Source of the DNA: Syntrophales bacterium
Lineage (GTDB): Bacteria; Desulfobacterota; Desulfobaccia; Desulfobaccales; 0-14-0-80-60-11
Length of the DNA: 39,127 nucleotides
NCBI GenBank assembly: GCA_028688935.1
Contig: JAQTXE010000003.1
Location: 1-39,127, forward strand
Reading direction: 5' to 3'
Part shown: piece by piece, positions 5,055 through 20,304 of the stretch
Layout: each line of letters begins with the position of its first letter
How positions within the stretch are numbered: the stretch's first letter is position 1
Translations under genes and position numbers: made by a program
The notes under the pieces: generated by a model
Told to the model about the DNA's origin: nothing
The model's input: the letters and a program-made list of their open reading frames with translations, nothing else
Databases searched by the model: none

Positions 5055-5882
5055 TCACTCTTTTTTCTTAATTGTTTTAAAGAATTTTTCTTTATATTCT
5101 CCTTTAAGGTCTAAAATATATTTAAAGCCGCGATATTTTGGTCTGACGGATTCTGGTATCTGTACTATATGAGCTATTTCCGGGGCTTTTGTGTTTAGTA
5201 ATATAGCAATAACATCTTCACAAAAAGTATAACAATTCTCCATCGTTACAGTTAGATAACTTCTTAAAGGAACTTTTGTCTTCGCTATTGCAGGAATTAT
5301 AATTATCGGCTTACCGCTTGGAGATAATTCTATATCAAACCGTTCAATATTTAGTTCATCATGTTCTACTTTTCCTCTTAAATCATACAGTTCTTTTACC
5401 CAATTACTGTCATCCTCAATCATCTTCCATTCTATACTCTCATCGCCAAATATAGTCTTTAAATAATTTTTTACATCCTTTATTCCCTTGAATGATTTTG
5501 AAAAAATAATGATGGCAATTTTTACGATTTTTCTAATAGCAATTACACACCAAATTAAAAAATCCTCAAAATGTTTTGTTAATCTTTCAGTTGGATCATC
5601 AAAACTGATCGCATGAGTCTGATATTTTATTCCATCGCCTGAAATAATTTGTTTAATCACTTGATCTTCTAATAAGATATATGCCTTCTTGGAATCTTCC
5701 GCCTTTAAAATATCTTTCATGCAGTCAAATAAACATTCTTTTAATTTATCAACTTGCTCTTTCGGCAACTCAATAATATTTCTGTCTAAGATATCAGAAA
5801 ATTGTAGGAAAATACGATTAACTATTTCATTATTTGCTCCTTCATCTAATATTTTTACAAATTTAAATTGCGGTCTTTCCAT
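5055..5882 (-). CDS. A+T-rich orphan protein (275 aa from MERPQFKF), with an Rx4H motif suggestive of a HEPN/Abi-like fold
   Basis: A long ORF in a strongly A+T-rich block, with no competing frame. The track ORF extends to 5978, but those extra 32 codons cross into the G+C-rich metG flank. RGKVEH is encoded at 5361-5378. No SD seen. Confidence 0.6.
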   Translation of the reverse strand: MERPQFKFVKILDEGANNEIVNRIFLQFSDILDRNIIELPKEQVDKLKECLFDCMKDILKAEDSKKAYILLEDQVIKQIISGDGIKYQTHAISFDDPTERLTKHFEDFLIWCVIAIRKIVKIAIIIFSKSFKGIKDVKNYLKTIFGDESIEWKMIEDDSNWVKELYDLRGKVEHDELNIERFDIELSPSGKPIIIIPAIAKTKVPLRSYLTVTMENCYTFCEDVIAILLNTKAPEIAHIVQIPESVRPKYRGFKYILDLKGEYKEKFFKTIKKKE

Positions 5883-5982
5883 AAAATTGATGCTCTTATA
5901 CCAATTCCTAATGTACAAAAATCTATGGCATTTAGGGTGAGGGATGATAAAGGCCTTTGGTCCTTGGCTCCTTCCCACAATC

Positions 5983-7587
5983 TCATTTTTCTTCTGTTTC
6001 CAGCCGGGGAAACAGGGCTGCCCCTTTTTGCAGTTTACCGCCGGGCAACAGCCGGCCCCATTTCAAGACCTGGGGCAGGGGCAGGTCCCAGAGGCTTAGG
6101 CCCAACCCCAGTTGTTCGCTCATTTTCAGGGCGCTGCCGGGCACCACCGGCCTGAGCAGCGCCGCCAGCCAGCGCAGCCCTTCCAGGAGATGATAAAGGA
6201 CCGTGTCCAGACGCTGGGCTTTTTGGGGGTCCTTGGCCAGTTCCCAGGGCGCAGCGGCGACAATGTAACGATTGAGAAGATTGATGAATTCCCAGACCCG
6301 GGCCAGGGCCTTGGGAAACTCCAACTCCGGGAAGAGCCGGAGAAAATCCCGGGCCGTTTCCTGGGCCGTGGTCACTACTTCCTGGTCTCCGGCCTCCGGT
6401 GGGCCCGGGGCCGGCACCACGCCCTTCCGGTACTTGAAGGCCATGCCTAAGCTGCGGGCGAAGAGGTTGCCCAGGTCGTTGGCCAAGTCGGCGTTGATCC
6501 TGGTCTTTAAAGCCTCTTCGCTGAAATGGGCGTCCAGGCCGAAGACCATTTCCCGGAGAAAGAAATAACGCGTCTGGTCAATGCCGTAATTTTGCGCCAG
6601 ATAGCGGGGTTCCACCACGTTTCCCAGGCTCTTGGACATCTTGCCCTGGGTCATCTGCCAGTAGCCGTGGACGTTGAGATGCTGAAAGGGCTCCACCCCC
6701 GCGGCTTTGAGCATGGTGGGCCAATAGATGCCGTGGGGTTTGAGGATGTCCTTGGCGATGCAGTGCTCCGCGGCAGGCCAGAAACGGCGGTAAGCCTCGC
6801 CCGCGGGATAGTCCAGGCCGGTGAGATAATTGAGGAGCGCGTCAAACCAGACGTAAGTGACGTAGCGTTCATCAAAGGGCAAAGGGATGCCCCAATCCAG
6901 GCGGCTTGCCGGCCGGGAAATGCACAGGTCTTCCAAAGGCTCCCTGAGAAAGGCCAGGGCTTCGTTGCGGTAGCGCTCCGGCCGGATCCATTGGGGATGG
7001 GTCTCGATATAGCCGATCAGCCAATCCTGGTAGCGGCTCATGCGGAAGAAATAGTTTTCTTCCTTGATATAGGTGGGCTCCACCTGGTGATCCGGACATT
7101 TGCCGTCCACCAGGTCCCTCTCCAGGTAGAAGCATTCGCAGCCGTAACAATAGAGGCCGCCGTATTCCCCGAAGTAGATATCGCCGGCGTCGTGCACCTT
7201 TTGCAAGACTTCCTGGACCACCCGGATGTGCTCCGGGGAGGTGGTGCGCACATAGACGTCGTAGTCGATCCCCATCTCGTCCCAGGTCTGGCGGAACTGG
7301 GCGCTGATGCGGTCCACGAATTCCTTGACGGGAAGGCCCTGTTTGGCCGCGGCCTCCAGGACTTTTTCCCCGTGTTCGTCCGTGCCGGTCTGAAAACGGG
7401 TTTCATCTCCCAGGAGGCGGTGGAACCGGGCCAGGGCGTCCACCACCACCGTGGTGTAGGCGTGGCCCAGATGGGGCTCGGCGTTGACGTAGTAGATAGG
7501 CGTGGTGATGTAAAAGACAGAGTTTTCTGTTTTCTGGTTACTGTTTTCTGGTAAGGTCCGGTTCTTGTTATCCACAGTAGTGCTCAA
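5983..7587 (-). CDS. metG: methionine--tRNA ligase
   Basis: Has the HIGH motif (NAEPHLGHAYT) and KMSKS. The TTG start at 7587 is preceded by AGGTGA with a 5-nt spacer. Length is 534 aa. Confidence 0.95.
   Translation of the reverse strand: MSTTVDNKNRTLPENSNQKTENSVFYITTPIYYVNAEPHLGHAYTTVVVDALARFHRLLGDETRFQTGTDEHGEKVLEAAAKQGLPVKEFVDRISAQFRQTWDEMGIDYDVYVRTTSPEHIRVVQEVLQKVHDAGDIYFGEYGGLYCYGCECFYLERDLVDGKCPDHQVEPTYIKEENYFFRMSRYQDWLIGYIETHPQWIRPERYRNEALAFLREPLEDLCISRPASRLDWGIPLPFDERYVTYVWFDALLNYLTGLDYPAGEAYRRFWPAAEHCIAKDILKPHGIYWPTMLKAAGVEPFQHLNVHGYWQMTQGKMSKSLGNVVEPRYLAQNYGIDQTRYFFLREMVFGLDAHFSEEALKTRINADLANDLGNLFARSLGMAFKYRKGVVPAPGPPEAGDQEVVTTAQETARDFLRLFPELEFPKALARVWEFINLLNRYIVAAAPWELAKDPQKAQRLDTVLYHLLEGLRWLAALLRPVVPGSALKMSEQLGLGLSLWDLPLPQVLKWGRLLPGGKLQKGAALFPRLETEEK
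7522..7552. repeat. heptamer array GTTTTCT (inside metG codons ~12-23)
   Basis: Parses as gttttct|gttttct|ggttact|gttttct|gg. It is translated as PENSNQKTENS. Confidence 0.8.
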
Positions 7588-11141: not shown

Positions 11142-12173
11142 TTACCAGGTTTCGGTCATGGCCTCCAGTTCATCTTTGAGTTCCCGGGCCATCAATTTCT
11201 TGATGGCCTCCCGGGGGGCCAGGTCCTCATAAAGAATACGGTAGACCGCGTCCACAATGGGCATCTCCACCCCCAGGCGCTGGGCCAGGAGATGTACGGC
11301 CCGGGTGGTCTTTACTCCTTCGGCCACTTCGCTCATGGACTCCAGGATTGCCGGCAGGGCCTGACCTTGACCCAGCTTCACTCCCACCTGGAAATTGCGG
11401 CTTTGGGAGCTGGTGCAGGTGAGGACCAGGTCCCCCAAACCCGCCAGGCCCATCAGGGTCATGGGATTGGCCCCTAATCTAGCCCCCAACCGGGTCATTT
11501 CCGCCAGACCCCGGGTGATCACCGCGGCCCGGGAGTTGGCTCCCAACGCCATGCCTTCCAGGATGCCGGTGCCGATGGCGAAGATGTTCTTCAGAGCCCC
11601 TCCCAATTCCACGCCGGTGACTTCGAGGGTGGTATATACCCGGAAATAGGGCGTAGAAAAAAGACGTTGCAGATTATGTGCCACTTCCCGGTGCCGGCTG
11701 GCGATGGTCACCGCGGTGGGAATCTTGTGGGCCACCTCCCGGGCAAAACTGGGACCGGAAAGGACCGCATAGGGAAAGGCCGCGCCCAACTCCTCCCGGA
11801 CTACTCCTTCCATGGTGAGCAGGGACTCGATTTCCATGCCCTTGGTGGCGCTCAGGAGCGCCGCCTCCGGCGGCAGATGGGGCCGCAGTTCCCGGAGCAT
11901 CTCCCGGAAGACGTGTGAGGGAACCGCCAGCAGGACCAGCCGCACCCCCTGCAGGGCCACGGCGAATTCCTGGGTGAAGATGATCCGGGAAGACAGTTTT
12001 ACTCCCGGCAAAAAGGTGTGATTGAGCCGCTCCCGGCTTAAAGCGGCGCACACTTCCGGCTCCCGGACCCAGAGGTGCACCGGCACTCCCTTATCCGCCA
12101 GGAGTTGGGCCAGGGCGGTACCCCAGGCGCCGGCCCCGATCACCGCTACGGCCTGGACGTTAGGAGATACCAA
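11142..12173 (-). CDS. gpsA: NAD(P)H-dependent glycerol-3-phosphate dehydrogenase
   Basis: Has the Rossmann motif [12 protein letters not shown] and the conserved GALKN and NFQVG regions. It overlaps the gyrA stop by 14 nt. Confidence 0.9.
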
Positions 12174-14640
12174 GGCCGGTCCCGCCGTTATCGTCGTTGT
12201 CTCCCTGTTCCGCCACTTTGGCCAGGCTCACCACCTGTTCCTCAGGATCTGCGTCCATCAACTTGACGCCTTGGGTCACCCGGCCGATCACCGAAATATC
12301 CTTGACCGCCAGGCGCAGAATCTTGCCGCCGTTGGTGACCAGCATGACTTCATCATCTTCCTGGACCTGGAGAATGCCCATCACCGGACCGTTCCGGGGC
12401 GTGATGCGGATGCCCAGTCGGCCCTGGCCGCCCCGGTTTTGGGCCGGGTATTTCTCCGGCCGGGTGCGTTTGCCAAAGCCCCGTTCGGTGACCGTCAGAA
12501 TACTGCCCCCGGGGTGCAGCACTTCCATGCCCACCACCTCGTCCTTGGGTGCTACGTCGATGCCCCGTACTCCCCGGGCGGCACGGCCCATATCCCGGAC
12601 TTGGCTCGAAGGAAAGCGAATGACTTTACCCAGCCGGGTCTCGATGAGGATCTCCTGGTCCGGTTCGGCCAACGCCACGCCCACCAGTTCATCCCCTTCA
12701 TTTAAGCCCAGGGCGATAATCCCGCCGCTCCGGGGCCGCTGGAAGTTCATCAGATCGGTCTTTTTCACCACCCCCCGGCGGGTGGCCATGACCAGTGAAA
12801 GCCCTTCCACAAACTCCCGGACGGGCAGCACGGTGGCCACTTTCTCGTCCAGGCCCAATTGCAGCAAGTTGACGATGGCCTTCCCCTGGGCCGAGGGCAT
12901 GCCCACGGGTATCTCATGGACCTTCAGCCAGAAAACCCGCCCCTTATTGGTGAAGAACAGGAAAGAGCTGTGGGTGGAGGCCACGTAGAGTTGGGAGACA
13001 AAGTCGTTCTCCCGGGTGCCCATACCGGTGCGGCCCTTGCCCCCCCGGCGCTGGCTGCGGTAAATAGTCAGGGGGGTGCGCTTGATATAGCCCCGGTGGC
13101 TGACGGTGACCACCATTTCCTCATCGGCGATGAGGTCTTCGGCGGTTAACTCCTGGGCCTGGGGGATGATTTCGGTGCGGCGGCCGTCTCCGTAACGCTC
13201 CTTTAATTCCTGCAACTCCTGGGCGATCAAGGCCTTGACCTGGGCCTCCTCCGCCAGAATCTGCCGGAAACGCCGGATGGCGGCCTCCACCTCCTCGGCT
13301 TCCTTGATGATCTTCTGACGCTCCAGGCCGGTGAGGCGCTGCAAGCGCATATTTAAAATTTCCTGGGCCTGGATCTCACTCAGGGCGAAGCGCTCCATCA
13401 ACTGCGCTTTGGCCACCGCCGGACTTTCCGCGGCCCGGATGAGGGCTATGACTTCGTCCAGGTGGTCCAGGGCGATGAGCAAGCCGGCCAGGATGTGGGC
13501 CCGGGCCTCGGCGTTTTTCAGTTCATAGCGGGTGCGCCTGATGATGTCTTCCCGGCGGTGCTCCAGGAAGTGGCGCAGCAGGTCCTTAAGGTTGAGAAGC
13601 TCCGGCCGGTTGTGGACGATGGCCACCAGGTTGATGCCGAAGGTGACCTGCATCTGGGTGTGCTGGTAGAGTTGGTTGAGGATGGTCTGGGAATATTCGT
13701 CCTTTTTCAGGAGGATCGCCACCCGCATACCTTCCCGGTCCGATTCGTCCCGGATGTCGGCGATGCCTTCAATCTTCTTTTCTTTCATCAGTTCGGCGAT
13801 GCGCTCAATAAGCCGGGCCTTGTTCACCTGGTAAGGCAGCTCCCGGATGACCAGGGTCTCCCGGCCTCCCTTTTTTTCCACGGCCACCTTGGCCCGGAGG
13901 CGGATCAGGCCCCGTCCCGTGCGGTAGGCCTCAGCGATGCCCTCGGCCCCATAGATGAACCCGCCAGTGGGGAAATCCGGCCCCGGGATAATGGGCAGCA
14001 GCTCCTCCACGGTGATCTCCGGGTTGGCCAGGACCGCCAGCAAGGCGTTGCACACCTCTTCCAGGCTGTGGGGGGGGATGTTGGTGGCCATGCCCACGGC
14101 TATCCCTGAGGCGCCGTTGACCAACAGATTGGGGAGGCGGGTGGGCAACACCAGGGGTTCCTGCAAGGAGCCGTCGTAGTTGCCCACGAAGTCCACGGTG
14201 TCCTTGTCCAGGTCCTGGAGGAGTTCATGGGCCAGCCGGGTTAAGCGCACTTCGGTGTAACGCATGGCCGCGGGCGCGTCTCCGTCCACCGAACCGAAGT
14301 TGCCCTGGCCGTCCACCAGGGGGTAGCGCAAAGAGAAGTCCTGGGCCATGCGCACGATGGCGTCATAGACCGCGGTGTCGCCGTGGGGATGGTACTTACC
14401 GATGACGTCCCCGACGATGCGGGCGCTCTTGCGGTAGGGCCGGTTCCAGTCGTTGCCGGTTTCGCTCATGGCGAAGAGGATGCGGCGGTGCACGGGTTTC
14501 AGCCCGTCCCGGGCATCCGGCAAGGCCCTGCCGATGATGACGCTCAGGGCGTATTCCAGGTAGGATTTACGTATTTCATCCTCGATGTTGATGTGTACGG
14601 CTCGTGTTTCCATAGTGAATAGGCTCGGTTGTTTAGTCAT
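12160..14640 (-). CDS. gyrA: DNA gyrase subunit A
   Basis: Has the [15 protein letters not shown], the active-site Tyr context [10 protein letters not shown], and a C-terminal beta-pinwheel repeat region. Length is 826 aa. The SD GGTGGA sits 5 nt before the ATG. Confidence 0.95.
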
Positions 14641-14642
14641 TT

Positions 14643-14678
14643 ATTTCCACCGCCGATGCACGCCGATGGACGCAGATT
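14643..14678. repeat. 36-nt direct repeat, copy 1 (ATTTCCACCGCCGATGCACGCCGATGGACGCAGATT)
   Basis: Identical to 15236-15271. It contains two CGCCGATG units. Its reverse complement supplies the gyrA SD (GGTGGAAAT). Confidence 0.9.
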
Positions 14679-14729
14679 GGTGCGCTTGCGCACCATAGAA
14701 TATTTTCCCAGTGTTCTGGATGTACTTTC

Positions 14730-15176
14730 TTATACTTCAGATCTTTCATCCTTGCGAAAATGTTCGGAATTTTCGGGTGCCAGGATAACACAACCAACCA
14801 TGTGGTTAAACCATCCATATCCAATCTTTAAGATGTACTCAGGAGCACCACCCGCCCTCACGGACATTGAATTTGGCTCATCTTCTCCAATAAATTGAAT
14901 ATCGAGTGGCAATCCACCCTCGTGGACTAATTGGCAGCGTAGCCATTTATAGAAGATATGCTCAAAAGGGTGACATTCGCCTCGATATTCGACACGCATT
15001 ACTGGTAAACGTGTGTCACGCAGGAACTGCTCAAAACACTCACGATCTTTCATTTTTGGATAGCGCAGACGTGCAGTGGCAGCCACTGCGATCAATACAG
15101 AAAGTAATGCTCCTTCTGCTCTACCATTTTTCCAAAGAAAAAGAGCACCATCAATACGTTCGCGAATACCTATCAT
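14730..15176 (-). CDS. hypothetical protein (148 aa) with an Rx4H motif, possibly HEPN-like
   Basis: The only long ORF in a lower-GC cassette flanked by the CATCGGCG-type repeats. WLRCQLVHEG is encoded at about 14922-14939. No SD is visible, so the start is uncertain. Confidence 0.5.
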   Translation of the reverse strand: MIGIRERIDGALFLWKNGRAEGALLSVLIAVAATARLRYPKMKDRECFEQFLRDTRLPVMRVEYRGECHPFEHIFYKWLRCQLVHEGGLPLDIQFIGEDEPNSMSVRAGGAPEYILKIGYGWFNHMVGCVILAPENSEHFRKDERSEV

Positions 15177-15206
15177 GACGCTATTGACTTTTTGGTTTTA
15201 CCATCT

Positions 15207-15271
15207 GTGTTCATCGGCGTTTATCGGCGGTTCATATTTCCACCGCCGATGCACGCCGATGGACGCAGATT
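15207..15271. repeat. imperfect 19-bp palindrome made of CATCGGCG units, including copy 2 of the 36-nt repeat
   Basis: CATCGGCGTTTATCGGCGG (15212-15230) pairs with CCGCCGATGCACGCCGATG (15243-15261). There are 2 central mismatches and a 12-nt loop. It lies between the two cassette genes. Confidence 0.85.
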
Positions 15272-15683
15272 AAAAGTTTTTTACTATGCGCCTAATTTCT
15301 ACTTTGGGTTTACCAAAATTAACCAAGAGACATACGGAAAGACCGGTAGCTTTCAAATAATTTAAACATTGGGCCATGTGCGCATCATCAAGAGCCTTGG
15401 CCGCTTTTAGTTCAATAATGACCTTTTCCTCAATTAACAAATCCGCAGCAAATTCGCCAACAATCGCACCATCGTATTTAACCTGGATGCCATGTTGTTG
15501 CCGTGTCTGCAAGCCGCATTTTCGAAGTTCATGGGCCAAAGCATTTTCATAAACTTTTTCCAAAAAACCGCTTCCCAAGGTATTACTAACTTTATAAATG
15601 CAACCGATTATTTTTTCCGTAATCCTGTCAAATTCCTTTCGGCGTTCATCGGCGTTCATCGGCGGTTCATTGGACGGCGGCAT
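15270..15683 (-). CDS. GxxExxY-family protein (PD-(D/E)xK nuclease-like fold)
   Basis: Has the GFLEKVY signature and D...ELK (FAADLLIEEKVIIELKA). The SD AAGAGG sits 6 nt before the ATG at 15683. An alternative start is M9 at 15659. Confidence 0.85.
   Translation of the reverse strand: MPPSNEPPMNADERRKEFDRITEKIIGCIYKVSNTLGSGFLEKVYENALAHELRKCGLQTRQQHGIQVKYDGAIVGEFAADLLIEEKVIIELKAAKALDDAHMAQCLNYLKATGLSVCLLVNFGKPKVEIRRIVKNF
15639..15673. repeat. 10-nt tandem array GGCGTTCATC (3 units) inside the GxxExxY N-terminal codons
   Basis: Reads tcGGCGTTCATCGGCGTTCATCGGCGGTTCATtgg. It is translated as NEPPMNADERR. Its orientation is opposite to the 36-nt repeat. Confidence 0.85.
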
Positions 15684-15996
15684 ACACGACCTCTTTGGTC
15701 GTCAAAATTTCATAACGCCTGAAAGGATTGCGGATTAGCCTCTTCTCCACCAGATCAACCTTCCGGTTAAATATCTTCTCAATCTCCTCCTGCATCTCTA
15801 GATGATCGTCTATAGTGAAGTCTTCATCCGGTTCGAAGGTCACCAGCACATCCACGTCACTGTCAGGACGAAAATCTTCTCTCAAAACTGACCCGAACAG
15901 GGCAAATTCCTTAATCTTCCACTTGCGGCAAAAGGCTTCTATCTTGTCCAAGGGAATTTCAAAGTTTGCTTTGGTTTTAATAACGGAGCGATCCAT
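15667..15996 (-). CDS. MNT-type nucleotidyltransferase (MntA-like antitoxin family)
   Basis: Has the FGSVLREDFRPDSDVDVLV motif (GS-x9-13-DxD). At 109 aa it is the typical size of the minimal nucleotidyltransferase of HEPN/MNT modules. Confidence 0.85.
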   Translation of the reverse strand: MDRSVIKTKANFEIPLDKIEAFCRKWKIKEFALFGSVLREDFRPDSDVDVLVTFEPDEDFTIDDHLEMQEEIEKIFNRKVDLVEKRLIRNPFRRYEILTTKEVVYAAVQ

Positions 15997-16011
15997 AGAA
16001 TTTTTAAAAGC

Positions 16012-17175
16012 TTAAGGATTGATCGTCGTCTGATACGCAAACTTCCCCTGATCCACCTTGATCACCACCACGCCCTTGAGGGGATTGTGGTCCGGGCCCA
16101 TGGTGATTTTGCCGGTGACCCCGGGAAAATCCTTGATCGCGGCCAGGGCGGCCGCGACTTCGGGTCCGTCTGTTGTTCCCGCTGTTTTCATGGCCTGGAG
16201 CAGCAGGAAATAGGCGTCCGCGGCCAGGGCCGAAAACGCGTCCAGGTCCTTGTGATACGCGGCCTCGAAGGCCTTCAAGTATTTCTTCCCCAGGGGTGTG
16301 ACCGCGCCCTGGCGGTGGAAGTGGGCGGTGAAATACATGCCCTCTACCGCCTTACCGCCGATGCTCAACAGTTCCGGCACCTGGGCCCCGTCCCCGGTGA
16401 GGATGGGGGCCTTCACCCCCAGGTCCTGGAGCTGCTTGGCCAATAGGGCGTTTTCGGCGTAATAATTGGGGGCATAGATCAGGTCCGGGTTTTTGGCCTT
16501 GAGTGCTGAAATCTGGGCGGAAAAATCCTGGTCCCCGGTCTGGATATAGCTCACCGCCACGATTTCACCCCCCCGGCGCTTAAACTCCTTTTGGAAGTAA
16601 TTGGCCAGGCCCACGCAGTAATCCTGGGCCTGGTCGATGAGAACCGCGGCCTTTTTGGCCTTCAGGTTCTCCCAGGCGAAGCGGGCGGCCACCCGGCCCT
16701 GGAGATCGTCCACAAAACAGGCCCGGAAGGCGTATTTACGGTTCTGGGTGACCAGGGGGTTGGTGGCCGTGGGCGCGATGTTGGGAACTTTGGCCCGCTC
16801 GGCGATGGGCACCCCGGCCAGGCTGTCGGAGCTGATGACCTCGCCGATGATGGCCGCCACCTGGTCCTTTTCGATGAGGCGGCTCACCGCGTTGGCGGCT
16901 TCGATCTTGTCGCTCTTGGTGTCCACCAGATACAGCTTTACCGGCTGCCCCAGGAACTTAGGCTGGAGCCGGTGGGCCACCTGCACCCCTTCCCAGACCA
17001 TCTGGCCCATGGCTGCGGCCGCGCCGGTCATGGGCAGGTAGAGGCCGATCTTGATCTCCCCGGCTGCCAGGGCCATGGAAGGACACACCCCCAAAAGCAG
17101 CCAGATGAAAATTAAGCCGATAAGTTTCCGCAAATGCTGACCCCAGCAGGGAATTAAGCGGGGTTTCTGGACCAA
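16012..17175 (-). CDS. ABC transporter substrate-binding protein, LivK/branched-chain amino acid type
   Basis: Has a signal peptide followed by IKIGLYLPMTGAAAAMG, and a type I periplasmic binding fold pattern. The true start may be the internal TTG near 17133 (MRKLIGLIF...). Confidence 0.85.
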   Translation of the reverse strand: MVQKPRLIPCWGQHLRKLIGLIFIWLLLGVCPSMALAAGEIKIGLYLPMTGAAAAMGQMVWEGVQVAHRLQPKFLGQPVKLYLVDTKSDKIEAANAVSRLIEKDQVAAIIGEVISSDSLAGVPIAERAKVPNIAPTATNPLVTQNRKYAFRACFVDDLQGRVAARFAWENLKAKKAAVLIDQAQDYCVGLANYFQKEFKRRGGEIVAVSYIQTGDQDFSAQISALKAKNPDLIYAPNYYAENALLAKQLQDLGVKAPILTGDGAQVPELLSIGGKAVEGMYFTAHFHRQGAVTPLGKKYLKAFEAAYHKDLDAFSALAADAYFLLLQAMKTAGTTDGPEVAAALAAIKDFPGVTGKITMGPDHNPLKGVVVIKVDQGKFAYQTTINP

Positions 17176-18947: not shown

Positions 18948-19238
18948 ATGATCACCCACATCGTCTTGTTCAAGTTGAAGGACCGCAGTCCGGGAAACCT
19001 CGAGAAGACCAGGGAAGTGCTGGCTTCCATGTCCGGGAAGATTCCCCAGTTGCGCCATTTGGAAGTGGGAGTGGACCTCTTGCGCACCGACCGGTCCTTT
19101 GATCTGGCCCTGGTGGCTAAGTTTGACAGCCTGGAGGACTTGAACGCCTATCAGGTCCACCATGAGCATCAACAAGTGATCAAATATATGCTGACGGTCA
19201 GGGAGTCGGCGGTGGCCGTGGATTACGAGGGGAGCTAG
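18948..19238 (+). CDS. Dabb (stress-responsive alpha/beta-barrel) family protein
   Basis: The ITHIVLFKLK start, the ~96-aa size, and H..H in the C-terminal half fit the family. A strong SD GGAGGAGGAG precedes it. Confidence 0.85.
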   Translation: MITHIVLFKLKDRSPGNLEKTREVLASMSGKIPQLRHLEVGVDLLRTDRSFDLALVAKFDSLEDLNAYQVHHEHQQVIKYMLTVRESAVAVDYEGS

Positions 19239-19293
19239 AGTTAACTAGCCTGATTCCCCAGCTCCCTCTCTCAATCTATGAGGAGAAAACGCC

Positions 19294-20304
19294 ATGCCCG
19301 AGTTCATCATCACCAAGCGCCTGGAAGATGCGGCCGCGGCCCAGGGGGTGGCTCTGGCCGGGGCCCAGCCCCTGGCCGGGGACGGCTCGGACCGCCGCTT
19401 TTTCCGGCTGCCGGGTTCCCCCACCAAGTTTCTCCTCTGGTACCCTTATGCCCCCGGCGGCGAGGTCAATGAAAACGATTCCTATTACCGCATCGGCCGC
19501 CACTTGCGGGCTCAAGGCGCCCCGGTGCCGGAAATCTTCCATTACTGCCCGGAAGAGGGTTGGCTGTTGCTGGAGGACCTGGGTGATATCCACCTGGAGT
19601 CGGCCGTAAAAGGCCGGGCCGGAGAGGCGCAAATACCCTTCCGCTACCGGGAGGCCCTGGATCTCCTGGTTAAGATGCAGGTGGAGGGCGTTCAGGGTTT
19701 TGATACCTCCTGGTGCTTTGACACCCCGGTGGTGGACGGGCCGTTTTTGCGGGAGCGGGAGTGCCTCTACTTTGTCCTGGCTTTTCTCCAGGGCTACCAG
19801 GGTCTGCAGTTGGCGGCCGCGGATCTGTACGCGGATTTTGACCGTCTCACTAAGGCCGCGGTTGCCTTAGGGGAGCGTTATTTCTTGCATCGGGATTTCC
19901 AGTCCCGGAATCTGATGATCAAAGACGGGCGTTTGCGGGTCATCGATTTTCAGGGAGCCCGGCTGGGACCCTTGGGCTATGACGTGGCCGCCTTGCTCAT
20001 CGACCCTTACGTGTCCTTAAGCCCTGCGCGGCAGGAAGAATTTTTGGCCTATTATCTTCAGGAATTGAAAGAGCGGGTGGCGGTGGAAGAGGAAGCCTGG
20101 CGCCAACAGTACTCCTACCTGGCCCTCAGCCGCAACCTGCAAATTCTGGGGGCCTTCGGTTTTCTGACCCGGGCCAAGAAGAAAGCCCATTTTGCCCGGT
20201 ATATTCCTGCTGCGTTACGGGAACTAAAGCGGCGGTTGGCGGAAAAGGCGGGGGAATTTCCCCGGTTGGCAGAGGTGGTGCTGAGCTTACCTCCAGGCTC
20301 TTGA
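19294..20304 (+). CDS. aminoglycoside-phosphotransferase-fold kinase (AmgK-like anomeric sugar kinase candidate)
   Basis: Has the catalytic loop HRDFQSRNLM and VIDFQGA (DFG-like). Its linkage to an NTP-transferase matches the AmgK/MurU recycling pair. Confidence 0.75.
   Translation: MPEFIITKRLEDAAAAQGVALAGAQPLAGDGSDRRFFRLPGSPTKFLLWYPYAPGGEVNENDSYYRIGRHLRAQGAPVPEIFHYCPEEGWLLLEDLGDIHLESAVKGRAGEAQIPFRYREALDLLVKMQVEGVQGFDTSWCFDTPVVDGPFLRERECLYFVLAFLQGYQGLQLAAADLYADFDRLTKAAVALGERYFLHRDFQSRNLMIKDGRLRVIDFQGARLGPLGYDVAALLIDPYVSLSPARQEEFLAYYLQELKERVAVEEEAWRQQYSYLALSRNLQILGAFGFLTRAKKKAHFARYIPAALRELKRRLAEKAGEFPRLAEVVLSLPPGS

Follow-up and report, generated by a model that had tools for sequence, protein, structure and literature searches.

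Inverted arrays of 10-nt units as normal flanks of GxxExxY genes, and two adjacent array-flanked cassettes upstream of gyrA in a Desulfobaccales genome

Introduction

In rRNA, intervening sequences are excised from a stem by RNase III. Repetitive extragenic palindromes (REP) are hairpins with a GTAG head, and the single-copy RAYT gene that accompanies them encodes TnpA-REP, a Y1 HUH transposase of the IS200/IS605-like type. The foldback (FB) transposons of eukaryotes have inverted arms that consist of short tandem subrepeats. The intervening sequences of 23S rRNA that bear an open reading frame (ORF), the S23p ORF, have been described as selfish elements (PMC4990558). Here we describe a stretch of 39,127 nucleotides from a Syntrophales bacterium of the GTDB order Desulfobaccales (contig JAQTXE010000003.1, assembly GCA_028688935.1; hereafter the window, whose positions are used for all gene coordinates), in which two minus-strand genes upstream of gyrA, one of them a member of the GxxExxY family, are each bracketed by arrays of CGCCGATG-type 10-nt units, four arrays in total. 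This block very probably consists of two adjacent copies of a widespread selfish cassette family that is tied to GxxExxY genes.

Like the ORF-bearing 23S intervening sequences, the cassettes contain a small accessory ORF (~120–130 aa for the rRNA elements) enclosed by a long stem of inverted flanks, are inserted where the continuity of a host RNA matters and are sporadically distributed; the selfish character described for the rRNA elements (PMC4990558) would be a further common trait. Unlike them, the window element lies in an mRNA spacer between protein-coding genes and not in rRNA helix 9, 25 or 45, its cargo is a predicted PD-(D/E)XK nuclease or an Rv1289-type protein, and its arms are made of a specific 10-nt unit. 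With the REP/REPIN–RAYT systems (REPIN, REP doublet forming a hairpin) the cassettes share a single gene flanked by an inverted short repeat, many gene-less inverted doublets in intergenic DNA, lineage-specific repeat types and the lack of a target-site duplication. However, the cassette arm is a tandem array without self-complementarity that pairs with the opposite arm alone, and the GxxExxY gene is multi-copy and codes for a putative RecB/Cas4-like nuclease with a PD-(D/E)XK fold. As in foldback elements, the arms consist of tandem subrepeats in variable copy number, and the central region is coding, deleted or absent. Internally deleted derivatives (L320, L316, L042; L-numbers are labels of fetched loci) are a likeness both to foldback elements and to miniature inverted-repeat transposable elements (MITEs), and the terminal inverted repeats and the small size of the gene-less forms also recall MITEs. 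In contrast to both, no target-site duplication or known transposase was found for the cassettes, and the sampled gene-less forms share hardly any loop sequence; unlike that of the FB transposons, the host is prokaryotic. Integron cassettes, the RNase III sites of phage T7 and hok are compared below; each known system fails as a home for these elements on at least one defining feature.

The Two Cassettes of the Window

On the gene strand, each cassette consists of an upstream (U) arm of CGCCGATGAA-type units, a gene and a downstream (D) arm of TTCATCGGCG-type units. In the first cassette, the U arm (15639..15673, minus strand; CAATGAACCGCCGATGAACGCCGATGAACGCCGAA on the gene strand) is followed by the GxxExxY / PDDEXK_3 gene (15270..15659, minus strand), which encodes 129 aa from a conserved ATG and has an upstream in-frame ATG at 15683, and by the D arm (15235..15271, minus strand; AATCTGCGTCCATCGGCGTGCATCGGCGGTGGAAATA on the gene strand), which starts at the stop codon. 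The second cassette is composed of a U' arm (15204..15235, minus strand; ATGAACCGCCGATAAACGCCGATGAACACAGA on the gene strand), a gene for a 148-aa protein of the Rv1289 family (PF27329; 14730..15176, minus strand) and a D' arm (14642..14678, minus strand). The outer end of the latter, GGTGGAAATAA-ATG, provides a Shine-Dalgarno-like sequence 5 nt upstream of the gyrA start.

A preliminary description of this DNA, made from the sequence alone, had located the four arrays, and its coordinates all hold. It had also reported the D-type copies as identical over 36/36 nt; the identity stands, although the measured extent is 37/37 (14642–14678 and 15235–15271). The U-type arms (15204–15235 and 15639–15670) are 91% identical. 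All combinations of opposite arms are complementary at 86–89% over 28–29 nt, and the arm–arm stem is present in the minimum-energy RNA fold of each cassette, so that both genes are indeed enclosed by arms able to pair. In contrast, the central junction, previously taken for a 19-bp palindrome, is formed by the U' arm and the adjoining D arm as a local palindrome with 29-nt arms and a 10-nt spacer.

CATCGGCG occurs 17 times in the window against 1.5 expected, a count reached in 0/100 shuffles, and 7 of the 17 matches fall within the four arrays; a degenerate unit-array pattern run over the 39 kb matched just these four. The block also differs from its surroundings in composition, as had been proposed: it contains 43–45% GC, with values of 0.40–0.48 over 14600–16000 vs ~0.62 on either side, and the GC content at third codon positions (GC3) is 0.34–0.37 in the two cassette genes vs 0.81 in gyrA and in the gene for a solute-binding protein (SBP) on the other side. 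For the cassette, GC is 0.39–0.44 vs 0.62 in the host. Across hosts, the GxxExxY gene is on average poorer in GC than its flanks by 11 points, but its GC content follows theirs (r = 0.77).

Arrays Flank GxxExxY Genes Across Phyla

The association extends well beyond the window. Eighty loci with GxxExxY relatives of 55–84% identity were sampled from Cyanobacteria, Planctomycetota, Acidobacteriota, Chloroflexota, Verrucomicrobiota, NC10, several proteobacterial classes and one Methanosarcinales metagenome-assembled genome (MAG), and 72 of the genes could be evaluated, with 400 ORFs of similar size from the same loci as controls. A flank inverted-repeat score of at least 17, taken as the threshold, was found for 55/72 GxxExxY genes vs 2/400 control ORFs. 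Close GxxExxY homologues are nearly all 129 aa long and begin with MNADERR, MDADKRR or MNGDEHR; these N-termini are translated units, and the start codon therefore lies inside the U arm. This is the case in essentially all family members, with no Shine-Dalgarno sequence, and in most elements the D arm begins 0–20 nt past the stop codon.

The unit type depends on the lineage: CGCCGATGAA in the window, CGCAGATGAA as the commonest form, and also CACAGATGAA, CACCGATGAA and CGCAAATGAA, with CGCAAAACA in L207 and GGGGATAAAG in L181 as outliers. The two arms of any single element always match in type. Distant members (31–48% identity) keep the architecture with other units, such as the 9-nt unit CAGAGGACN in Bacteroides finegoldii or CGCGAAGG in Sphingomonas; on one Fusobacteria plasmid, the flanks are direct, not inverted. 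The resemblance of Pyrinomonadaceae arms to a DnaA box (TTATCCACA), together with the proximity of gyrA, was set aside as probably coincidental. The family is very large, with 16,998 clusters (50% identity, E ≤ 1e-3). GxxExxY genes are carried by 8/72,556 plasmids, and no GxxExxY record was found in a phage collection.

The orientation of the arrays is just as consistent. Among 210 loci, neighbouring arrays stand in the enclosing order (U then D) in 126 cases vs 23 in the reverse order, so the expected tendency toward inverted pairs is real. A wider set of 365 loci yielded 162 unique U–D pairs, with loops of <60 nt (46), 60–199 nt (51) or 360–450 nt (52). The 360–450-nt loops correspond to the GxxExxY class, and 97 pairs have loops of 15–199 nt. 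GxxExxY genes occupy 54/60 of the gene-sized arm pairs, and homologues of the Rv1289 gene elsewhere (Verrucomicrobiota, Tepidisphaeraceae and others) have no flanking arrays; the arrays are therefore the normal flanks of GxxExxY genes and no general vehicle. The sole other intact cargo is the 148-aa Rv1289 gene, at the gyrA site alone, where its cassette is found in the window, L127, L128 and L220 by regular-expression scan and in L222 by inspection. In the same gyrA island, L235 has an Rv1289-type gene without arrays. The Rv1289 cassette is therefore a local derivative.

The likeness to the ORFs of rRNA intervening sequences, which had been pointed out for the window, holds for their cargo family too. 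PF05635 is an unrelated four-helix-bundle family, and in L193 a PF05635 gene outside rRNA (L193 60–640) has inverted tandem arrays of ATTCAAGA-type units, with the same architecture as the window cassettes. A GxxExxY cassette at the same locus carries CACAGATGAA arms, so that units are cargo-specific while the architecture is shared.

Some family members have other arrangements. In L174 (2312–3053), complete hairpins (U, 98-nt loop, D) stand both before and after a GxxExxY gene; their loops resemble each other, and this layout is nearer to REP–RAYT than to the usual single enclosing stem. Several GxxExxY relatives of 250–270 aa contain two matched stretches and may be tandem fusions or read-through products across adjacent cassettes. 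Distant GxxExxY genes also occur co-oriented within core operons, in fabD/GxxExxY/fabG-acpP-fabF of a Sphingomonas chromid (L369) and between radA and the gene of an FAD-dependent protein on a Bacteroides plasmid (L367).

Gain and Loss of Cassettes in a Hypervariable Island

Along the direction of transcription, the window carries the gene of the periplasmic SBP (Peripla_BP_6; 16012..17175), an MNT / MntA-like nucleotidyltransferase gene (15667..15996) outside both cassettes, the GxxExxY gene, the 148-aa gene and gyrA (12160..14640), all on the minus strand. The SBP gene is thus the upstream and gyrA the downstream host gene of an island that lies directly 5' of the gyrA start codon. With the C-terminal part of the SBP, 79 loci were fetched, 45 of which have gyrA downstream. 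In Desulfobaccales and Syntrophobacterales, the two host genes are separated by a hypervariable island, from 11 nt to 2.8 kb in length, that contains HicBA, MNT–HepT, a lone MNT, the GxxExxY cassette, the Rv1289 cassette or several larger unrelated genes; all island genes are co-oriented with gyrA (loci L220–L294).

Empty sites, for which a search among relatives had been proposed, were found in L231, L261, L262, L270, L263 and L258: the SBP stop codon lies 11–52 nt from gyrA and the spacer has no arrays. In six other loci (L114, L074, L228, L239, L243, L294), one cassette fills the whole spacer, with the U arm a few bases past the SBP stop and a D arm that ends in GGTGGAAAATA-ATG, where ATG is the gyrA start. 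Two cassettes are present in L128, L127, L220, L222 and the window. L128 has a GxxExxY cassette plus an Rv1289 cassette; L127 also has HicBA, MNT–HepT and a frameshift in its GxxExxY gene; L220, in which the N-terminus of GyrA is 99% identical, resembles the window and has an extra hicB fragment. Remnants occur as well, namely a solo D arm (L237), a D arm with a 3' gene remnant (L253) and a 5'-truncated gene followed by three D ends (L230). The cassette, arms and gene together, comes and goes as a single block, and the sites are free of arms when empty. The suggestion that the insert behaves as a cassette was thus right, with orthologous sites that are empty, single, double or reduced to a remnant, and with deleted derivatives and gene-less hairpins elsewhere; what did not stand is the broader idea of a vehicle for genes in general, given the share of GxxExxY among gene-sized pairs.

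At gyrA, the GxxExxY gene is always accompanied by repeats. Relatives whose island holds toxin–antitoxin genes only (L221, L240, L246, L247 and others) have no arrays there; it is therefore the GxxExxY cassette, and not the island, that brings the arrays with it. The same genes without repeats, which had been named as a sign against the cassette idea, were never seen at gyrA for GxxExxY; they do occur for Rv1289 (L235) and for MNT, the latter in many relatives without any array. The MNT gene belongs to the toxin–antitoxin layer of the island and not to the cassette. Of the three small genes of the block, two are thus cassette cargo and the MNT gene is a bystander. The window MNT protein matches NTP_transf_2 at 2.3e-18 and reaches 53.3 bits against the MntA equivalog, below its cut-off of 60. 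Its gene is an orphan: no hepT/HEPN toxin gene stands beside it in the window, while hepT is present in L127, L221, L223, L227 and L246. The reading frame of the MNT gene extends into the GxxExxY cassette and now ends at a TGA inside the U arm, and the same arm holds the likely ATG of the GxxExxY gene (15659–15657).

A row of small genes separated by palindromes invites comparison with integrons, in which case the junctions between arms would be attC-type sites and the cassettes sedentary ones that lack an integrase. The genes are small, co-oriented and promoterless, the array is variable and includes toxin–antitoxin genes, and the D–U' junction is an imperfect palindrome of ~68 nt between two ORFs. 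In addition, the outer arm-end consensus ATTTAAC...GTTAAAT resembles RYYYAAC/GTTRRRY, and two identical D arms are what circle integration at D would be expected to give. However, the arms enclose the gene, in the 126 vs 23 ratio given above, and form no compact site 3' of the ORF; many elements end in AGC or GGC, not AAC (the window ends match the consensus at 5/7); copies are scattered singly around genomes; the HicAB and MNT–HepT modules of the island have no such sites; and no integrase domain was found in 18 neighbouring window ORFs, a subset of the ORFs of the window. On the grounds of polarity, end consensus and the lack of an integrase in the scanned ORFs, attC sites were rejected, and an integron origin appears extremely improbable.

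Unit Anatomy and the Level at Which the Arms Act

Units registered on GAT across 57 elements have a fixed core, AC(G/A)C-n-GAT, plus three free positions. Mismatch from arm to arm is 1–7% at seven positions (G0, A1, T2, A5, C6, G/A7 and C8) and 19–26% at the other three, which are the two nucleotides that follow GAT and the n that precedes it. Position 7 is G or A depending on the lineage, yet it is mismatched in just 4% of cells and therefore co-varies between the arms. In a 36-element alignment, 92.5% of cells are paired and 18/30 pairs are altered on both sides; 0/500 shuffles reach either value. Orthologous arms (window, L220, L222, L128, L127) differ almost solely at the free positions, whereas the genes next to them have a synonymous divergence (dS) of 0.1–1.2. 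Conservation of the arms thus greatly exceeds that of synonymous sites, and the core is therefore under selection. The arms are functional, as their conservation, covariation and consistent polarity establish. Because the period of the unit is 10 nt, three units offer an ATG with an overlapping TGA (ATGA) in all three frames.

The best reading of these data is that of a selfish foldback-type cassette whose arms are iterated sites at the DNA level. Such recognition is favoured because a core of seven fixed positions recurs with a period of one helical turn, the other three positions being unconstrained, because the units of an arm resemble one another although pairing would not demand it, and because the core is conserved across phyla with no excess of G.U pairs. 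For this model as a whole, our confidence comes close to even without reaching it.

Alternatively, the arms may matter in the transcript alone, as a closing stem comparable to those of rRNA intervening sequences, T7 RNase III sites or the hok fold-back. Pairing would then make the start codon of a nuclease that may be toxic inaccessible, or provide an RNase III site that frees the cassette mRNA from the host polycistron and leaves the expression of host genes undisturbed, or both, and the cassettes would spread by the generic recombination that shuffles the island. The placement of the start codon in the U arm with no Shine-Dalgarno sequence, and of the D arm 0–20 nt past the stop, suits this explanation. 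So does the window transcript. Since neither a sigma-70-like promoter nor an intrinsic terminator is predicted on the minus strand from the SBP gene to gyrA, the block is probably co-transcribed with its neighbours. The closing stems are part of the minimum-energy folds, and in the fold of the two-cassette transcript the outermost arms pair, which places the MNT stop codon beside the gyrA ribosome-binding site. Similarly, cassettes lie in tight operon spacers (fabD/fabG, radA/next gene, Dabb/APH), a co-directional ORF is found upstream in 24/33 elements and in about half ends at the arm, gene-less hairpins in viral contigs occur right before a Shine-Dalgarno sequence and ATG, and PF05635 genes, the cargo of rRNA intervening sequences described as selfish (PMC4990558), share the architecture.

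Other observations speak against a role in the transcript alone. On the sense strand, arm mismatches comprise 43 G.U vs 47 A.C overall and 12 vs 13 at the constrained positions, so that the wobble expected of an RNA stem is not seen as an excess of G.U over A.C. Excision of the window element by RNase III, which had been envisaged by analogy with the intervening sequences, finds no support in this mismatch spectrum. Pairing by itself requires neither seven fixed and three free positions nor alike units in each arm, a structure-only element should drift whereas the core motif is kept across phyla, the arrays of L379 have no partner arm, and both the presence or absence of whole units and the solo arms are left unexplained. 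As for the individual models, the cassettes resemble T7 RNase III sites in having ~30-bp stems between co-transcribed genes and hok in a predicted 5'–3' pairing that would hide the start codon. This start-sequestering pairing is predicted by folding, but the wobble-pair signature is absent, the cassette core is conserved and iterated, no antisense RNA is known, and the cargo, in contrast to the small membrane peptide of hok, would be a 129-aa soluble protein with a nuclease fold. All in all, we consider it rather unlikely that the arms act through RNA alone; this is nevertheless the main competing explanation and a serious one, and the DNA-level and RNA readings are mutually compatible.

Two further observations concern the RNA of this region. 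The Rv1289 cassette RNA (14620–15240, minus strand) folds with z = –8 relative to shuffles, which exceeds the contribution of the closing stem. This fold includes a small GC hairpin, GGTGCGC-AA-GCGCACC (14679..14694, minus strand), which adjoins the inner side of the D' arm, within the 3' untranslated stretch of the second cassette, and is conserved in L127, L128 and L222. An Rfam scan of 14000–16600 (E ≤ 1) gave chance matches alone, with no rRNA and no matching family.

Proteins of the Cassettes

The window GxxExxY protein scores 145.7 bits against Pfam PF13366 (cut-off 22) and 147.9 bits against NCBIfam TIGR04256 (cut-off 35). Residues G31, E34, Y37, D73, E83, K85, Q97 and Y101 are invariant in 19 sequences, and the catalytic set E34, D73, E83-x-K85 and Q97xxxY101 is present in full. 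The AlphaFold2 (AF2) model has a predicted local distance difference test (pLDDT) score of 91.5, and its best matches in PDB are Cas4 SSO0001, LHK-Exo, lambda exonuclease, MGME1 and the AddAB nuclease; the protein thus models as an intact, minimal RecB/Cas4-like nuclease with a PD-(D/E)XK fold. The gene is under strong purifying selection, with a ratio of non-synonymous to synonymous divergence (dN/dS) of 0.03–0.08 against orthologues, and its dS is 1.5–3 times that of the adjacent gyrA.

For the 148-aa protein of the second cassette, PF27329 'Rv1289' is the precomputed Pfam assignment, as it is for all of the 120 homologues listed. This protein also evolves under purifying selection (dN/dS 0.11–0.27), and its AF2 model (pLDDT 85) has no fold match in PDB. 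An identity as a HEPN protein, suggested by an Rx4H motif (RCQLVH), was discarded in view of a confident model without a PDB fold match. In L215–L219, genes of the Rv1289 family stand directly 3' of a small DUF2283 gene, a pairing that suggests a two-gene, toxin–antitoxin-like module. PADLOC, PHROGs and a PDB sequence search gave no match for the GxxExxY or the Rv1289 protein, and profile searches detected no transposase domain in the cassette proteins.

Copies Elsewhere and Gene-Less Hairpins

With a lineage-tuned pattern, additional copies were located elsewhere in the same Desulfobaccales MAGs, on separate contigs. Most of them are gene-less hairpins in short spacers between co-directional genes (L309/L338) or beside terminators (L314/L325, L321). 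In general, gene-less forms have arms of 28–35 nt and loops of 15–199 nt. Internally deleted GxxExxY cassettes are also present (L320 and L316, with further examples in L042 and L176), and GxxExxY remnants were recognized in 3/62 mid-sized loops. Those of L316 (1890–2200) and L320 (1–190) belong to two related MAGs and lie in the spacer between a Dabb and an APH gene. In the window, this spacer is empty (19239–19293, between Dabb at 18949–19238 and APH at 19294). L316 contains two deleted cassettes in tandem, each followed by GGTGGAAAAGACNACGATTAATCC, a fusion of the gyrA-leader flank with the 3' end of the SBP gene; this junction is of the circle or tandem-duplication type.

The abundance of gene-less forms raises another explanation, namely that the hairpins are host-domesticated and REP-like, with a function in mRNA stabilisation, protein binding or nucleoid organisation, and that GxxExxY genes are passengers that landed or survived in their loops. 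Gene-less hairpins outnumber gene-bearing ones in the pattern-based samples, their loops are unique, several are situated beside terminators or in operon spacers, and the unit type is lineage-specific. By contrast, across phyla the arms incorporate the start and stop codons of 76% of GxxExxY genes, there is almost no other cargo in the loops, hairpins are absent from empty orthologous sites, and gene-less orthologous copies gather uncompensated changes (L309/L338, L314/L325). Domesticated hairpins with passenger genes are consequently an improbable origin for the cassettes.

Arrays are present in viral (IMG/VR) contigs too, with no GxxExxY gene in the stretches examined. Three or four gene-less hairpins each were counted in L383, L385 and L387; those inspected lie directly before a Shine-Dalgarno sequence and ATG in L383 and in intergenic spacers in L387. 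Phage-like L379 (2100–8400) has twelve arrays of CGC(A/G)GATGAA units between consecutive genes, in one orientation and with no partner arms. On the gene strand, a TCGGAAGGAT-type motif comes after most of them and, in the one array checked in detail, reads as a ribosome-binding site overlapping the start of the next gene. An array in L406 is 105 nt long.

Apart from the cassettes, the window has a region that looks like a second foreign insert: a 307-aa ORF (5055–5978, minus strand) with no Pfam match and a GC content of 0.28 vs 0.58 for the whole window, between metG (5983–7587) and an NlpC/P60 gene (4422–5000).

A Possible Mode of Action

Each cassette has two to four 10-nt units (CGCCGATGAA in the window) in its upstream arm, then a small gene and then the same units inverted; the left copy is a standard GxxExxY cassette, and the right copy has the same arms but an Rv1289-family gene in place of GxxExxY. 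In the explanation that we favour, the arms would serve as element ends, with inverted, iterated sites that are recognized at the DNA level and through which the cassette may be copied, exchanged or kept. The likeliest agent would be the cassette's own RecB/Cas4-like nuclease, and we hold, tentatively and at somewhat below even confidence, that the arms act at the DNA level through this enzyme. The Rv1289 cassette would then be a non-autonomous derivative served in trans. As secondary effects, arm pairing would loop the ~1-kb insert out of the SBP-to-gyrA transcript, the units would supply ATGA in all frames, and the outer end of the last arm would provide the gyrA ribosome-binding site; in this way, the insert would be tolerated within the operon and the cargo translated by coupling.

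Several results weigh against this explanation. No mobility step was observed or reconstructed. No target-site duplication and no direct repeat were found in the flanks of 157 arm pairs, and the arm ends pass gradually into an AT-rich consensus that is symmetric (inverted), (A/T)TT(T/G)A(A/G)C. In a sample of few loci per genome, one of 63 loops of gene-less hairpins had a similar partner, and just 3/62 hold GxxExxY remnants; these hairpins are therefore probably not a classical MITE burst. The MITE-like vehicle of the preliminary description accordingly fails on target-site duplication and probably on shared internal sequence. The copy in L316 brought flanking host sequence with it, which is at odds with precise, end-defined excision. 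Protein identity tracks arm type weakly (0.617 vs 0.599), and the outlier arm types of L207 and L181 are paired with ordinary proteins. In addition, the cargo protein need not be the mobilising enzyme, because the unrelated PF05635 family shares the architecture. Finally, the constant position of the start codon in the arm and the viral arrays before ribosome-binding sites fit an RNA or translational role equally.

A bolder proposal goes beyond the DNA-level reading of the arms. GxxExxY cassettes and gene-less hairpins might form a new class of prokaryotic mobile element, a bacterial 'foldback' with inverted 10-bp iteron arrays recognised and cut by its own minimal RecB/Cas4-like nuclease, able to capture other small genes such as the Rv1289 type, and with the ORF-bearing 23S intervening sequences as the rRNA-resident branch of the same lifestyle. 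In this lifestyle, a hairpin that closes on itself would wrap a small gene and allow it to settle within essential transcription units. We regard this as doubtful, if worth stating.

Significance

In the searchable literature on GxxExxY / PF13366 / TIGR04256, there is no mention of repeats, no paper holds the unit sequences, and no function or mode of spread is given for PF13366/GxxExxY. Within the limits of that literature and of Rfam, the association between the arrays and GxxExxY genes is apparently undescribed. It has practical consequences, as the arrays disrupt assemblies and give rise to spurious N-termini and small ORFs (MNADERR..., ...SAFIGG). In Desulfobaccales, the arrays mark a hypervariable toxin–antitoxin island in front of gyrA.

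More generally, a very large family gains with the inverted iteron arrays its first testable cis-acting partner. The packaging of the gene between such arms suggests how a selfish gene can live between essential genes, whether binding-protein gene and gyrA, fabD and fabG, or radA and the next gene, and it may be linked to an old problem, that of the rRNA intervening sequences with an ORF.

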